A stretch of DNA of 50,945 nt from Thermoplasmata archaeon. Lineage in GTDB: Archaea > Thermoplasmatota > SW-10-69-26 > JACQPN01 > JAJPHT01. Location of the stretch: contig JAXDQU010000017.1 in assembly GCA_034667685.1 (NCBI GenBank), positions 1-50,945 of the forward strand. Reading direction: 5' to 3'. How positions within the stretch are numbered: the first letter of the stretch is position 1; each line of letters opens with the position of its first letter. Made by a program: the position numbers and the translations under genes. Under the pieces are notes generated by a model. It was not told where the DNA came from. It saw only the letters and a program-made list of their open reading frames with translations, and ran no database searches. This document shows, in pieces, positions 55-24,679 of the stretch.

Positions 55-82
55 TCAGGCGGCCTTCGCCTTGAACTCGGTG
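55..82 (-). repeat. Displaced synonymous duplicate of rps27ae 3' end (TEFKAKAA*)
   Basis: Minus strand C ACC GAG TTC AAG GCG AAG GCC GCC TGA vs in-gene C ACG GAA TTC AAG GCG AAG GCC GCG TAA (155-182); offset 100 nt. Confidence 0.9.
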
Positions 83-154
83 CTGGACGGAGCCTCCGCC
101 GCGCGCTGCGCTCGCGGCACCTCCGTCCGCACGGAATCCAAGGCTCGGGGCCGC

Positions 155-355
155 TTACGCGGCCTTCGCCTTGAATTCCGTGTATCCGCAGTTGCCGCAC
201 GAGACGCGGTCCTTGTGCTCCGCGAGGAACACGCCGGGGCCGCACTTCGGGCACGCCTTGCGCTTGCGCGTGACCGTCGTGCCCTTGACCTCGTAGAGCG
301 CGCGCTTGCCGGCCGGTCCCTTCTTGGGCTTCGCGGCTTCCTTGCCCTTCGCCAT
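155..355 (-). CDS. rps27ae: 30S ribosomal protein S27ae
   Basis: [26 protein letters not shown] zinc ribbon; last gene of the conserved rpoE' operon. Confidence 0.97.
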
Positions 356-16789: not shown

Positions 16790-16889
16790 GCGGGGTGCTC
16801 GCGCGGGCCGGTGCATGAAGCGTGCGATTTGCCCGCGGCGCGACGGATCACTTTGAAGTAGCCCGTCCCGGATGCGCGCGGCGAGCCCC

Positions 16890-18242
16890 ATGGCCGTGAA
16901 CCTCCGCGACCGGAAGTACGCCCTCGACATCGACCCGAAGGCCCTCGACGGGCAGGACGTGGTCGTGGCGGGCTGGATCCAGGAGACGCGCGACATGGGC
17001 GGGATCGCGTTCGTGATCCTGCGCGACCGCAGCGGCACGCTCCAGGTCGTGCTGCCCAAGAAGAAGCTCGATGCGGCGCTCGTGGAGAGCCTCACGAAGC
17101 CCAACCGCGAGAGCGTCGTCGCGATCCTGGGCACCGTGAAGGCGTCCGAGAAGGCGCGCAACGGCTACGAGGTGCTCCCCAAGGAGGTGCGCATGCTCAA
17201 CGAGTCCGCCGCGCCCCTGCCCATGGGCATCGTCGACAAGGTGGACGTCGACTTCGAGACGCGCCTCGACAACCGCTTCCTCGACCTGCGCAAGCCTGAG
17301 GTCCAGGCGATCTTCCGCGTGCGCAGCGCGCTCGTGAAGGCCGGGATTGACAGCTTCACGAGGCAGGGCTTCTTCCAGGTCCACACGCCGCGCATCATCG
17401 GCGCCTCGTCCGAAGGCGGCACCGACCTCTTCCCGGTCAAGTACTTCGAGAAGGACGCGTTCCTCGCGCAGTCGCCCCAACTCTACAAGCAGATGCTGAT
17501 GGCGACGGGCCTGGACCGCCAGTTCGAGGTCGCGACCTACTTCCGCGCCGAGAAGCACAACTCGTACCGGCACCTCAACGAGGTCACGGCCTTCGACGTC
17601 GAGATGGCGTTCGTCGAGAGCGAGGAGGACGTCATGAAGATCCTCGAGACCGCGGTGCGCGACATGTGGCAGGGCGTGCACGACCACTGCCACGCCGAGC
17701 TGAAGCTCCTCAACAAGGAGGTCAAGGTGCCGCAGCTTCCCTTCGCGCGCCTGACGTACGACGAGGCGCTCAAGCTCGTCAACGGCGCGGGCCGCTGGAC
17801 CAACGAGAAGGGCGAGCAGGCCCAGATCCCCTGGGGGGACGACCTCAACGCCGCGGCCGAGAAGATACTCGGCGAGGTCATGGCGGAGCGCGGCCACGCG
17901 TTCTACTTCATCACGAAATACCCGGAGACGGTCCGGCCGTTCTACACCTACGTGGACGAGGACGGCACGACGACGCGCAGCTTCGACCTGGAGCACGCGG
18001 GCCTCGAAGTGACCTCGGGTGCCCAGCGCCAGCACGACCCGCAGAAGCTCGTGCAGCGCATCGAGGCCAAGGGGCTCAACCCGGCCGACTTCCGAGACTA
18101 CCTCAAGCCGTTCCAATACGGGATGCCCCCGCACGGCGGCTTCGGCCTCGGCATCGACCGCCTGACGATGGAAGTGCTCAACCTCCCGAACGTGCGCGAG
18201 GCCGTTCTCTTCCCGCGCGACAGAACGAGGCTCGCGCCGTGA
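16890..18242 (+). CDS. aspS: Aspartate--tRNA ligase (archaeal type)
   Basis: OB fold AGWIQETRDMGG, LAQSPQLYKQ, FRAEK, GMPPHGGFGLGIDR, FPRD. Confidence 0.97.
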   Translation: MAVNLRDRKYALDIDPKALDGQDVVVAGWIQETRDMGGIAFVILRDRSGTLQVVLPKKKLDAALVESLTKPNRESVVAILGTVKASEKARNGYEVLPKEVRMLNESAAPLPMGIVDKVDVDFETRLDNRFLDLRKPEVQAIFRVRSALVKAGIDSFTRQGFFQVHTPRIIGASSEGGTDLFPVKYFEKDAFLAQSPQLYKQMLMATGLDRQFEVATYFRAEKHNSYRHLNEVTAFDVEMAFVESEEDVMKILETAVRDMWQGVHDHCHAELKLLNKEVKVPQLPFARLTYDEALKLVNGAGRWTNEKGEQAQIPWGDDLNAAAEKILGEVMAERGHAFYFITKYPETVRPFYTYVDEDGTTTRSFDLEHAGLEVTSGAQRQHDPQKLVQRIEAKGLNPADFRDYLKPFQYGMPPHGGFGLGIDRLTMEVLNLPNVREAVLFPRDRTRLAP

Positions 18243-18323
18243 GCGCGAGCCGAAGTGTGTCGCGCGGGATGGCCGCCGCCAGGGCGCGCAGCGCCCGGTC
18301 GGCCGCAGCCGAGGCGGCGAGCA

Positions 18324-18355
18324 TCCCCCGCGACCGCACGCGCCTGGCGCCGTGA
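18324..18355 (+). repeat. Displaced synonymous duplicate of aspS 3' end (PRDRTRLAP*)
   Basis: TC CCC CGC GAC CGC ACG CGC CTG GCG CCG TGA vs in-gene TC CCG CGC GAC AGA ACG AGG CTC GCG CCG TGA (18211-18242); offset 113 nt. Confidence 0.9.
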
Positions 18356-18359
18356 GGGC

Positions 18360-19106
18360 ATGGCGATCTGCCGGCAATGCTGGGAGCCGCTCGCCGAGGT
18401 CGAGCCAGGCGTCCTGGCGTGCGCGAAGGGGCACGGGCACCTCGTGGACGAGGCGTGGCTCCGGGCGCACCTCTCCACCGACTCGTGGGTGGCGTGGCAG
18501 CGCGCGATCGCGGCGGCCACGCCGACGACCCACGCGTGCTCCGCGTGCGGCGCCGACGTGGTCCATGCCGCGTTCCGCTCGAGCTGGTGGCCGGTCTCCC
18601 GCCTCACAGGCTTGCCGCGCTTCCACCCCCTCGTGGTCGGCGCCCCGACGCCCTGGGCGCCCTGGCCGTACGTCGAGGAGGTCGCCGCGCAGCGGTGCGT
18701 CGCCTGCGCCCGGACGTGGTTCGACACGCTGGGTCTCGGCCTGCTGCGCGACCGCGGCCCCGCCTTCACGCCGCTCCCCCAGCACGCGCCGCCCACGGGC
18801 GTCTGCCCGCGCTGCTATCAGAAGCTGGATGCGGACGACCGGTGCGAGCGGCACGGCACCCTCGTGCGGGGCAGCCGGCTGGAGCCGATCCTGGAAGGCC
18901 GCGCGGAGGCCGTGAAGACCCTCCTGGGGCGGGCGCCCGGGGGCGGCCCCCGCTGCCCGGCGTGCACGACCCAGATGCGGCGCCTCACGCTGGACGGGTG
19001 CGAGCTGGACGCGTGCGCCTTCTGCTCCTCGATCTGGCTGGAGGGCAAGGCCATCGAGCTGGGGCCGCGCCTGCCCAACCTCCTTCTTGCGCTGGACAAG
19101 CGCTGA
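18360..19106 (+). CDS. Multi zinc-ribbon protein (C-terminal zf-TFIIB-like)
   Basis: Several CxxC pairs; CPAC..M....ELDACAFCSSIWLE. Confidence 0.75.
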   Translation: MAICRQCWEPLAEVEPGVLACAKGHGHLVDEAWLRAHLSTDSWVAWQRAIAAATPTTHACSACGADVVHAAFRSSWWPVSRLTGLPRFHPLVVGAPTPWAPWPYVEEVAAQRCVACARTWFDTLGLGLLRDRGPAFTPLPQHAPPTGVCPRCYQKLDADDRCERHGTLVRGSRLEPILEGRAEAVKTLLGRAPGGGPRCPACTTQMRRLTLDGCELDACAFCSSIWLEGKAIELGPRLPNLLLALDKR

Positions 19107-22485: not shown

Positions 22486-24186
22486 ATGCTGCGCCAGGCC
22501 CTCCTCGCGCTCTTGCTCCTCGCCACCGGCTGCATCGCGCCCTCCGCCATGAAGGCCGCGACGCACGACGAGGTCGGCGCCTCCACGCTGCGCTTCGACC
22601 TCAACGACTCCGTGGCGCTCCGGCTCTCGCTGCCCATGAAGGACGGCACGCACCTGGACGTCATGACGTGGCGCCCCAAGACCGACGAGAAGGTGCCGAT
22701 CCTCGCCGACATCGGCCCCTACTACGGCAACCTGGCCGGCGACATCACAAAGGCGGGCGGCTTCGACGCGCGCGCGATCCAGTACTTCCTGCCGCGCGGC
22801 TACGCCTACGCGCTCGTCTCGGTGCGCGGCACCGGCCAGAGCGAGGGATGCTTCGACCTGGGCGGCAACGTCGAGCAGCAGGACGTGCACGACGCGGTCG
22901 AGCAGCTCGCGCGCCTCTCCTGGAGCAACGGCGCGGTCGCGGTGATCGGCAAGTCGTACGACGGGACCACGCCCTGGGAGGCGGCGATCACGCACCCCGC
23001 GGGCCTCAAGACGATCGTGCCCATCAGCGGCATCACCGACATGTACCGCTACACGTTCCACGACGGGACGACGTACCCCGAGAACGCGGGGTTCGAGACG
23101 TACTACAACCTGCTCGTGGACCAGGACGTGGACCAGGGCCCGCCCCCGACGTTCTACGGCCAGAACCACACGCAGCAGAACGCGGCGCGCACGTGCTACG
23201 ACGACGCGGCGGCGCAGAGCGCGTACGGCGGCGAGACGATCTTCGACGGCAACCACGGCACCGCGTTCTGGCAGGAGCGCGACTACGAGCCGCGCATCCC
23301 GCAGATCGACGTGCCCGTCTTCCTCGTGCACGGCCTGCACGACTGGAACGTCAAGCCCGACAACGGCGTGCCGATGCTCGACAACCTCACCGTCCCCAAG
23401 GCCGCGTGGCTGGGCCAGTGGGACCACAACTACCCGGACGTCAACACCTACAAGCCCGAGTGGAGCCGCCACGACTGGAACGAGACGCTGCTCACCTGGT
23501 TCGACCACTGGCTCAAGGGCGTCGACAACAACTGGACCGACGTCGCGCACGTCGAGGCGCAGGACCAGGCCGGCGCGTGGCACGTCTACGCCGACGACCA
23601 GTGGCCGCCCGCCGACGCGCAGGACGTCACGCTCTGGCTCACGCAGGGCAAGATGCTATCACCGATCCCCGCGCAGGCCGGCAGCCTCGTGATGCAGGAC
23701 AAGAGCCCGGTGGAGGCCCTCGACCCCGCCGCGGGAACGGGCGGCCTCGCGTTCCTCAGCGCGCCCATGCCGCGCAACGTGACGCTGCTGGGCCTGCCCA
23801 CCGTGGACGTCCGCATGAGCCTCGACCGGCTCGGCGGCAACCTCGCCGCCACGTGGTACGACGTCGGCCCGGACGGCAAGTGGACCGAGTGGGACCACGG
23901 CAGCCGCGAGCTGATGCACCGCGACTCGCGCGACCAGGGCGCGCCCGTCACGCCGATGGCGCCCTTCACCACCACGCTGAACCTGTACCCGACCGAGACG
24001 ACGCTCGCCGCGGGCCACCGTCTCGGCCTCGCGCTATCACCCGAGCTCCCCACGTGGATCGAGCCCTCGCCCCTCGCGGCCGGCGGAAACTATGCGATCA
24101 TGCTCGGGCCGCAGGGCACGCGGCTCCACGTGATGGCGGAGCCCGCGGACGCGGCGACGTTGCGCGGAGCGATGGGCCTGGGTTGA
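22486..24186 (+). CDS. CocE/NonD family hydrolase (X-Pro dipeptidyl-peptidase-like) lipoprotein
   Basis: Lipobox LATGC; RGTGQSEG; GKSYDG nucleophile; HGLHDWNV; GQWDH. Confidence 0.9.
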   Translation: MLRQALLALLLLATGCIAPSAMKAATHDEVGASTLRFDLNDSVALRLSLPMKDGTHLDVMTWRPKTDEKVPILADIGPYYGNLAGDITKAGGFDARAIQYFLPRGYAYALVSVRGTGQSEGCFDLGGNVEQQDVHDAVEQLARLSWSNGAVAVIGKSYDGTTPWEAAITHPAGLKTIVPISGITDMYRYTFHDGTTYPENAGFETYYNLLVDQDVDQGPPPTFYGQNHTQQNAARTCYDDAAAQSAYGGETIFDGNHGTAFWQERDYEPRIPQIDVPVFLVHGLHDWNVKPDNGVPMLDNLTVPKAAWLGQWDHNYPDVNTYKPEWSRHDWNETLLTWFDHWLKGVDNNWTDVAHVEAQDQAGAWHVYADDQWPPADAQDVTLWLTQGKMLSPIPAQAGSLVMQDKSPVEALDPAAGTGGLAFLSAPMPRNVTLLGLPTVDVRMSLDRLGGNLAATWYDVGPDGKWTEWDHGSRELMHRDSRDQGAPVTPMAPFTTTLNLYPTETTLAAGHRLGLALSPELPTWIEPSPLAAGGNYAIMLGPQGTRLHVMAEPADAATLRGAMGLG

Positions 24187-24190
24187 AGAT

Positions 24191-24239
24191 GACAGACTCT
24201 TGACCGGTTCGCCCCGCGTTCGAATCCGGCCTGGCCCGC
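24191..24239 (+). pseudogene. Degenerate partial copy of tRNA-Lys (anticodon arm to 3' end)
   Basis: GACAGACTCTT...GTTCGAATCCGGCCTGGCCCGC; 22 bp (24218-24239) identical to 24514-24535. Confidence 0.85.
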
Positions 24240-24459
24240 TCTTCGCGTGCCGACCTGTGTTTCCGTCGCCACGACTCGTGCCGGGCGCACGTCTCGCCGG
24301 TGTCGGGCAAGCGAAGAGCCGCGGGCGCGAAGGCGCGCCAGCGTTCCGTGACATCCGATACGGCGCTCCCGGACGAACCGCGGAGGGCCCGCGCAATCAT
24401 CAAATAGGGGGAGTCGCTTCGAGGCGTCGCGCCTCGGCGCAGACCGCGAGTTTTCTCGT

Positions 24460-24534
24460 GGGCCAGTACCCTAGCTAGGTTAAGGGGACAGACTCTTAAT
24501 CTGTTCGCCGCCGGTTCGAATCCGGCCTGGCCCG
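24460..24534 (+). tRNA. tRNA-Lys(CUU)
   Basis: Acceptor GGGCCAG/CTGGCCC, D stem CCCT/AGGG, anticodon arm ACAGA-CTCTTAA-TCTGT, T arm CCGG-TTCGAAT-CCGG. Confidence 0.92.
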
Positions 24535-24679
24535 CCTTCCTTCCCACGAGCGATTCCGCTCGACGGGTCCTGCTTTGGTCCTGGCCTGCACCCATCTGGC
24601 TCCGCCCCACACGCCGTCCCCAAACTCTTCAAAAGCGACGGCGGCATTGTCTCGCGCGGAGCAACAGGAGGCACCCAGC

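Follow-up and report, generated by a model that had tools for sequence, protein, structure and literature searches.

Duplicated gene ends flank a structured insert at aspS of a Thermoplasmata archaeon and recur at other protein and tRNA genes

Why is the end of an aminoacyl-tRNA synthetase gene encoded twice within little more than a hundred nucleotides, and in two different spellings? The question is raised by the aspS locus in a 50,945-nt stretch of DNA, here called the window, from a Thermoplasmata archaeon of soil. aspS (16872..18242, plus strand, from the list of open reading frames) encodes an archaeal-type aspartyl-tRNA synthetase with a Pfam tRNA-synt_2 match (3.8e-85) and an anticodon OB fold; its candidate starts are the ATG codons at 16872 and 16890, and its stop lies at 18240-18242. 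The last nine codons, PRDRTRLAP, and the TGA form an in-gene copy (X', 18213..18242, plus strand, aspS frame), which is followed 113 nt further on by a downstream copy (X, 18326..18355, plus strand, frame +2). Both copies contain CGC GAC, ACG and GCG CCG TGA, while X' reads CCG, AGA, AGG and CTC where X reads CCC, CGC, CGC and CTG. All six of the six differences (18215, 18222, 18224, 18228, 18230 and 18233) are synonymous, as the original prediction had stated. It had also called the arginine codons of X' atypical, and this is borne out: X' holds the AGA and one of the only two AGG codons among the 32 arginine codons of aspS, and genome-wide AGA and AGG account for 1.4% and 9.4% of arginine codons.

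The DNA between the copies is highly structured. X' provides the 5' arm of a first hairpin, and an inverted copy of the gene end (18243..18269, plus strand) provides the 3' arm. In this hairpin 18211-18237 pairs with 18243-18269 (27 nt each, 81% complementary) around a loop that contains the stop codon; folding z-scores are -3.5 (RNA) and -4.6 (DNA), and none of 200 shuffles folds as well. The inverted copy matches X' at 22 of 27 positions and X at 18 of 27. It is followed by a Y-shaped palindromic module of 56 nt (18269..18324, plus strand) that combines an outer stem with two small hairpins, their loops being GCA and of the CCGCAG type. The target duplication amounts to about 31 nt. The 113-nt insert is without any open reading frame, recombinase gene or integrase gene, and no Rfam family matched positions 17900-18700 at E up to 1. 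The duplication and hairpins at the aspS end are thus present in the sequence as first described.

A trivial explanation would be that the assembly merged two strains. The genome (G000) is a 124-contig metagenome assembly, 99% complete, and the sequencing run in which the whole stretch is found may be the one from which it was assembled. However, a contig from run X2, which comes from a different soil sample and a different study, spans 18222-18424 with no differences. Since this contig bridges the insert, the aspS duplication is not an assembly artefact; the same architecture is found in at least seven other genomes of the class, and we regard merged strains as scarcely credible.

The insert is missing from the same site in the sister species G003, where the aspS stop is followed 4 nt on by the same next gene. 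In the window this gene, which encodes a zinc-ribbon protein (18360..19106, plus strand), likewise begins with its ATG 4 nt past the stop of X. A further empty site is provided by a contig of run X3, a third sample, in which a single letter separates 18242 from 18358; this site seems to have the AGA/AGG spelling. These two empty sites show that X marks the original stop/start junction, as proposed. Among 14 relatives, five carry different inserts at aspS: in G008 the copies have about 20 codons in common with one difference, and in G020 there are three identical tandem units. A scan of metagenome contigs with the aspS C-terminal domain kept 80 loci at 55% identity or less and returned no close alleles.

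To what extent is this layout general? The original prediction had called for a genome-wide scan, for which we took the terminal 24 nt of each gene and looked for a second occurrence, with 19 or more of the 24 matching, in the 500 nt that follow. One was present at 30 of 3062 gene ends as against 2.0 expected per permutation, well above chance, and the permutation control is the valid null for this recurrence. A reversed-genome control of a peptide scan gave 35 pairs as against 45 real ones; it is invalid as a null because 24 of the 35 pairs lie at the same repeats and because differences spaced by three bases are still silent in one of the reversed frames. After removal of the P0/P1 paralogue pair there are 16 pairs with the stop in register, one repeat forming a working gene end. 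Synonymous differences in these pairs affect 27 codons and non-synonymous ones 13; six of the 13 lie at the left border and four in one probable chance match, leaving three. The layout is seen at protein-gene ends, at tRNA 3' ends and at one gene start, dozens of sites in all, and at the same genes in relatives, which supports the proposed general mechanism.

A second example in the window is the end of rps27ae (55..182, minus strand), where TEFKAKAA and a stop are encoded twice, 100 nt apart, with four synonymous differences and with TAA in one copy and TGA in the other; its interior consists of an inverted copy and one palindromic module. Target duplications vary from 16 to about 100 nt, with 16-22 nt at tRNA sites and up to 96 nt at a biotin-carrier gene. 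It had been suggested that a gene might be found between the copies in some cases. No nuclease or HUH transposase was found in this position, while at one site, the end of a carboxyltransferase gene, a vapBC pair sits between the copies.

Could the hairpins be the primary feature, i.e. a host-selected terminator or mRNA-stabilising signal of which the last codons form one arm, the second copy being incidental? Of 2405 gene ends, 19 have a perfect stem of at least 8 bp that places the stop in its loop, compared to 4 and 8 at internal controls, and at the C9 gene and the AdoHcyase gene paired changes across species keep the stem. Such changes could, however, also come from an arm that is copied along with the gene end. 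Moreover, sense and antisense strands fold about equally (the ten A-type cassettes are mixed, with 31 vs 22 G-U pairs), a trailer hairpin would be expected to compete with tRNA folding at tRNA genes, only about 1% of genes have the structure, patchily among close relatives, and the second copy is left unexplained. We consider a selected 3'-end signal very unlikely. As an indicator of action at the RNA or the DNA level, the folding comparison and the G-U counts favour neither.

At tRNA genes the last 16 nt recur (at least 15 of 16) 46-119 nt downstream in 10 of 48 predicted genes. These repeats begin in the T-loop and involve the same module families as at protein genes. The idea that the loci have no long sequence in common does not hold, as a structural homologue of the 56-nt aspS module, with compensatory stem differences, lies at the LSm gene (G000:C12:59791-59844), and the core of the aspS module recurs within the genome and the genus (G000, G001, G004). 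Module families are small, with two copies of the aspS type and ten of family B. Of the latter, seven are flanked by direct repeats of at least 15/18 and two more by weaker ones. Each family is found at many different targets, each site with its own target copy, which is not explained by a classical fixed attP. Family-B modules are without an inverted arm, so that the idea of a folded target mimic is not general. The genome contains five matches to PF00589 (tyrosine recombinase), three of them adjoining tRNA genes and none inside the aspS insert, and on contig C1 an integrase domain is closely preceded by a near-identical module.

The two spellings were compared with those of relatives. The in-gene copy had been described as recoded; instead, the differences are those of two natural alleles, both spellings existing as sole gene ends in relatives, and Ser AGY/TCN and stop-codon differences between copies also match sole-end spellings. 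The view that the downstream copy is the native one stands in part. With G003 as the reference, 57 differing positions in 12 loci divide into 30 where the sister agrees with the downstream copy, 21 where it agrees with the in-gene copy and 6 where it agrees with neither; at aspS the split is 3:2:1. At the AdoHcyase gene the downstream copy is native, and the in-gene copy derives from the allele type of another species: codons -45 to -18 of the latter match G003 and codons -17 to -1 match G002, while 13 consecutive codons of the downstream copy match G003. The same polarity, clear at this gene, has support at PCNA, LSm and C13, and the reverse, with a sister-like in-gene copy, is seen at S7 and the C9 gene. 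At the C9 gene the hairpin arm matches this in-gene copy, and G003 keeps the hairpin with a mere stub of the second copy, a pattern which points to an old resident structure at that locus. The two copies are different functional alleles and not a fresh copy with subsequent decay.

These data bear on the possibility of a local replication error, in which a template switch or snap-back at small stable hairpins copies the gene end first inverted and then direct. Such copies would start out the same and become different only with time, allele exchange or gene conversion being subsequent events. The direct-inverted-direct order, the hairpins at both junctions and the equal extent of the three copies are as expected from such an event, and near-identical copies do exist at aspS in G008 and G020 and at PCNA in G004, where they are identical, as do tandem arrays of units in relatives. 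Yet the G003 aspS empty site has a palindrome at neither border, and the junction modules belong to repeated families rather than to local sequence. A purely local switch also misfits the AdoHcyase gene because its in-gene copy is of another species' type. Free decay predicts about 60% non-synonymous changes, in contrast to the 27 silent and 3 to 13 non-silent codons seen. The copies at a Pup-ligase-like gene show 11 differences over 54 nt, every one of them silent, and yet the module is 96% identical to other copies. Based on this we regard a replication error as unlikely.

The foreign allele at the AdoHcyase gene could instead be the scar of a recombination event, in which the end of a related lineage's gene, with its downstream DNA, was joined by one-sided homologous and illegitimate recombination. 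The native end would then be pushed downstream, and the hairpins would be passengers rather than a mobile unit. The vapBC site, which has the same layout with unrelated cargo, fits this picture, and insertions with long target duplication occur mostly in naturally competent species (PMC2853133). The 3' half of aspS is itself mosaic between G000 and G003, with amino acid identities of 0.95-0.99 over codons 0-240 and 0.74-0.85 over codons 240-440; the gene downstream is only 67% identical. This mosaic is real, but neither could the recombinant be told apart from the other genome nor could a tie to the insert be drawn, and it was set aside. Against a scar, the right junction always abuts the last hairpin of the module, the inverted arm and the duplication are equal in extent, 7 to 9 of the 10 family-B copies have the duplication, and the border falls in the T-loop at all 10 tRNA genes concerned. 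The same gene and junction are patchily occupied within the family (PCNA in 4, FKBP in 3 and S7 in 3 of nine genomes), the PCNA junction being the same in four genomes. At the AdoHcyase gene the foreign tract starts exactly at the left border of the duplication and has no foreign flank. A recombination scar thus appears quite unlikely.

The layout is systematic, and the insert acts as a discrete cassette, one that either supplies an intact gene end or preserves it. The first interpretation is supported in its general mechanism, while recoding, a purely local template switch and an always-native downstream copy are not. With moderate confidence we favour the explanation that the 113 nt are a miniature non-coding integrative cassette, which brings a spare gene end along, as e14 does at icd, and moves between lineages by recombination. 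Entry may proceed by a single Campbell-type crossover between the gene-end copy of the cassette and the chromosomal one. The gene would keep a complete end (X' and its stop) and X would be left silent just downstream, like attL and attR. A variable crossover point would result in mixed polarity, and the same crossover in reverse would permit exit. The cassette would travel from one lineage to another along with exchanged DNA, so that conserved housekeeping and tRNA genes should be favoured targets. The inverted arm might allow a single-stranded cassette to fold into a duplex that mimics the target. Candidate enzymes are a tyrosine recombinase acting in trans, XerA or RadA. Circular or excised forms were not present among the contigs, which are blind to rare alleles.

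How does this compare with known systems? At icd, e14 leaves an icdC pseudogene, and when the element is lost the gene may end up with the alternative spelling (PMC13626634); dusA-specific islands replace the 5' end of their target gene (PMC4482086). The cassettes resemble these elements and tRNA-targeting proviruses in that direct repeats flank the insert, the gene is intact and one copy is silent and respelled; tRNA 3' ends are frequent targets of both. Unlike integrase-type elements, they are about 50-110 nt long with neither an integrase nor another gene in the insert, they belong to few module families at many targets, many with an inverted target copy, and the native-looking copy varies between loci.

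An 'insertion with long and variable target duplication' was reportedly described by Nobusato in 2000. In Furuta et al. (2010, PMC2853133) this class comprises bacterial restriction-modification gene units, the screen having left no case from archaea. The cassettes have in common with it an insertion relative to a related genome, a variable duplication of tens of bases, the lack of a mobility gene and repeats that in some cases overlap gene 3' ends; at about 31 nt, the aspS duplication is within its bounds (more than 30 bp, variable, no mobility gene). They differ in their cargo of non-coding hairpins (once vapBC) and in the divergence of the copies, which can reach 20% and is confined to silent sites.

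REP, REPIN and MITE elements are similar as small GC-rich hairpin families mostly just outside genes, in which this genome is rich. In contrast to these, the cassettes have neither a short fixed target duplication nor the usual terminal inverted repeats, their families are small, and a Y1/HUH (RAYT-type) transposase (PF01797) has no match in the 99% complete G000, controls being positive in 6 of 14 genomes. The CTX phage attP, a substrate of XerCD, and the integron attC are single-stranded folded attachment sites. By pure analogy, hairpin arms that imitate a duplex site and an integrated element flanked by target copies would be comparable, while family-B cassettes differ by the lack of the inverted arm. 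Tandem-inversion duplication and ODIRA inverted triplication (PMC4689423) also involve a direct-inverted-direct order and hairpin-capable junctions; the cassettes differ in having non-identical copies and junctions made of family modules that are not in the empty site. In literature on M. jannaschii palindromic repeats, long target duplication, hairpin-associated illegitimate recombination, tandem-inversion duplication, archaeal tRNA and integrase remnants, and icd/e14, we found no account of hairpin inserts between gene ends that differ only silently.

If mobile, the cassettes would be the smallest integrative elements known, gene-less and harmless by design, as they bring or keep a working gene end. 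Their targets are the most conserved genes, i.e. an aminoacyl-tRNA synthetase, ribosomal proteins, PCNA, RadA, an RNA polymerase subunit and tRNAs. Mobile cassettes would make core genes mosaic at silent sites, which can mislead phylogenies and strain typing; they would mark the exchange of DNA among archaeal species, and in metagenome assemblies they would break contigs and cause gene ends to be mis-called. In addition, the layout provides a testable model for the unexplained insertions with long target duplication. More speculatively, we may be looking at a new class of miniature integrative elements, gene-less structured DNAs of about 100 nt with a spare target end, a possibility which we raise tentatively. 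Many would also have the complement of that end and, when single-stranded, fold to a dumbbell that resembles the target duplex. Such DNAs would home into conserved gene ends and tRNA T-loops by means of host or trans-acting recombinases, and the silent-site 'respelling' of essential gene ends would be the footprint of cycling in and out.

Several other candidates were considered and rejected. A diversity-generating retroelement does not fit, as adenines at 3 of the 6 differences belong to the in-gene copy and not to the downstream one, and all changes are silent. Programmed translational bypass is at odds with the in-gene copy having its own stop after a full conserved C-terminus, as in relatives, and by inspection the layout does not fit splicing of a BHB intron. 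An integrated element at tRNA-Val on contig C25 has no cassette-like module at its border; what might be its second repeat, on contig C82, falls within a coding region and probably matches by chance. Low-GC third positions near the 3' end, considered as a sign of imported tracts, are present in cassette genes but also genome-wide: A/T-ending codons number 2.79 in the last 50 codons compared to about 1.7 per 50, and a 3'-end pattern like that of the cassette genes is seen in 97 of 1202 long genes.

The aspartyl-tRNA synthetase gene aspS (Pfam tRNA-synt_2; stop ending at 18242) carries its last nine codons plus TGA at 18213-18242, and the same nine codons plus TGA recur in another frame 113 nt on, at 18326-18355. 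As the original prediction stated, the two copies differ at six positions, 6/6 synonymous. Its view that AGA and AGG are atypical for aspS agrees with codon counts: the 32 arginine codons of the gene include one AGA and two AGG, with an AGA and an AGG in the in-gene copy, and genome-wide the two make up 1.4% and 9.4% of arginine codons. The stop of the downstream copy lies 4 nt before the ATG of the next gene. Between the copies, an inverted copy of the aspS end (18243-18269) starts right after the aspS stop, and a 56-nt Y-shaped palindromic module (18269-18324) precedes the second copy. The predicted pairing of the in-gene copy with the insert, with the stop in the loop, is supported by the inverted arm, which matches the in-gene copy at 22/27 and the downstream copy at 18/27 positions, and by folding (z = -3.5 as RNA and -4.6 as DNA; 0/200 shuffles fold equally well). 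Rfam returned no family match for this stretch. A role as host terminator is weakly suggested by stems of at least 8 bp with the stop in the loop, found at 19 of 2405 gene ends compared to 4 and 8 in controls, but strand asymmetry is absent.

The aspS insert physically exists and represents an insertion event. A contig of metagenome run X2, from a different sample and study, spans 18222-18424 with zero differences; a run that spans everything is not independent because it may be the source of the assembly. In the sister species G003 the site is empty, the aspS stop being followed by four bases and the same next gene. In a contig of run X3, from a third study, a single letter separates 18242 from 18358. 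This contig shows 31 differences over 17981-18242; one further difference is missing from the list, and among those listed none lies past 18209, where the in-gene copy has its left border, so that the AGA/AGG spelling seems to exist as the only aspS end in this relative, which is about 12% diverged. Compared to G003, aspS (16890-18242, locus L004) is a mosaic, with amino acid identity of 0.95-0.99 over the first 240 codons and 0.74-0.85 over the last 200, where G003 is no closer than other relatives.

The layout is general in the home genome G000 (124 contigs, 3.48 Mb, 71% GC). A peptide scan, requiring 7 or more residues plus stop to be encoded a second time no more than 600 nt away, returned 45 pairs, about 17 of which read as this layout. 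In a code-blind scan, 3083 ORFs were called by third-position GC and 3062 ends tested for recurrence of the last 24 nt (at least 19/24, up to 500 nt downstream); 30 recur against 2.0 per permutation, and 13 against 0.33 at 20/24. The stop is in register in 17 of the 30. The affected genes include rps27ae, PCNA, ribosomal protein S7, RNA polymerase subunit N, LSm and RadA, as well as AdoHcyase, an FKBP isomerase, a biotin carrier and a Pup-ligase-like gene; the targets are conserved. The proposed sister case, rps27ae (55-182, minus strand), indeed has its end duplicated 100 nt downstream with four silent differences and stops TAA and TGA; the space between is taken up by an inverted copy and a single palindromic module. 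The ribosomal stalk genes P0/P1 (G000:C54:12690-13065, minus), with a common 22-residue C-terminus and 11 silent differences, are ordinary paralogues without a cassette and were taken out of the counts. Many intergenic hairpins of G000 have C(GNA)G-type loops, e.g. CCGCAG and GCGAAGC.

The insert is a discrete unit and the flanking duplication belongs to the module. The 80-nt family B is present in 10 copies, 7 of them with flanking repeats of at least 15/18 and 2 more with weaker ones. One copy (G000:C122:8543-8617) extends this layout to the start of a gene: it lies between two silently differing versions of the opening codons (MAQRADFR) of the opposite-strand gene. At locus L218 (G000:C66:1590-2380) a 763-nt insert with a vapBC pair (PIN toxin, VapB antitoxin) on the opposite strand sits between copies of the last 9 codons of a carboxyltransferase, with 3 silent differences. 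A pure recombination scar would account for this vapBC case and for foreign spelling, but gives no reason why nearly every family-B copy carries the duplication and leaves the fixed junctions unaccounted for; we consider it improbable.

Predicted tRNA genes carry the same arrangement. In 10 of 48 ARAGORN predictions, a few of them dubious-looking, the last 16 nt recur (at least 15/16) 46-119 nt downstream (contigs C8, C11, C21, C41, C45, C61, C68, C79 with two sites, and C89). The repeat starts in the T-loop in every case, and hairpin modules of families known from protein-gene sites lie between the copies. In the window, a partial degenerate tRNA-Lys(CTT) copy (24180-24243) that spans the anticodon arm through the 3' end precedes the intact gene (24460-24536) by about 296 nt, the intact copy being the downstream one.

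Among 14 relatives, five (G004, G008, G005, G016 and G020) have a second full or partial aspS-end copy behind different hairpin inserts, some tandem. PCNA has the same architecture and junction in 4/9 family genomes, FKBP and S7 the layout in 3 each, and the C9 gene the layout in 3 and the hairpin alone in 2 more.

The two copies are two allelic spellings. If one were a decaying leftover, about 60% protein-changing differences would be expected; the 17 stop-in-register pairs have 32 silent and 13 non-silent differing codons (27 and 13 without P0/P1). In our reading, six of the 13 sit at the left border, within the first one or two codons; four belong to a single likely chance match, and three remain. 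AdoHcyase gives direct evidence on the nature of the copies. Nucleotide identity between G000 and G003 is 0.84-0.97 along this gene; in the last 30 codons it falls to 0.70, and that to G002 climbs to 0.86. Most of codons -14 to -3 of the in-gene copy have G002 spelling, and the downstream copy has G003 spelling at 13 consecutive codons; the switch coincides with the left border of the duplication, and ATCGAC is present at both junctions. Serine AGY/TCN switches and stop-codon differences match sole-end spellings in relatives. Between-species transfer has occurred at least once. Polarity is not uniform across loci: of 57 positions that differ between the copies at 12 loci, G003 shares the in-gene letter at 21 and the downstream letter at 30, and has neither at 6. 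In-gene to downstream agreement is 0:4 for PCNA, 1:4 for C13 and 1:5 for AdoHcyase, reversed for the C9 gene (5:0) and S7 (3:0), and 3:2 with one neither for aspS. A local template switch would explain why the copies run direct-inverted-direct and why some relatives have near-identical ones; it is unlikely, though slightly less so than the scar, leaving imported modules, AdoHcyase polarity and silent-only divergence unaccounted for. In long genes, A/T-ending codons number 2.79 per 50 in the last 50 codons and about 1.7 in preceding bins.

The cassette probably enters when the gene-end copy that it carries undergoes one crossover with the chromosomal gene end; a varying crossover point would give the mixed polarity. 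Loss would be the reverse event and could account for the empty site with AGA/AGG spelling. CTX phage and integron attC sites use a folded single strand imitating a recombination target; by analogy, the inverted arm may let a single strand of the cassette fold into a mimic of the target. Family B is without an inverted arm.

The overall logic is that of e14 at icd, with its icdC pseudogene (PMC13626634), and of dusA islands (PMC4482086); in descriptive terms the cassettes belong to 'insertion with long target duplication' (PMC2853133). Unlike these three systems, the cassettes are gene-less and about 100 nt long, their hairpin modules are shared across many targets, and in an archaeon they often occupy tRNA genes and core genes. 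A literature search found no description of hairpin inserts flanked by silently differing gene ends.

No HUH transposase was found in G000. Three of its five tyrosine recombinase genes adjoin tRNA-Val (C25:35404-36645), tRNA-Ser (C78:20706-21947) and tRNA-Arg (C79:16377-17692); GC is low behind this tRNA-Val, as in an integrated element. Near-identical Y-shaped modules occur at C21:92410-92455, as part of a tRNA-Val cassette, and at C1:13369-13414, where a tyrosine recombinase domain (C1:13981-14505) follows just downstream; this C1 module is flanked by its own short direct and inverted repeats.
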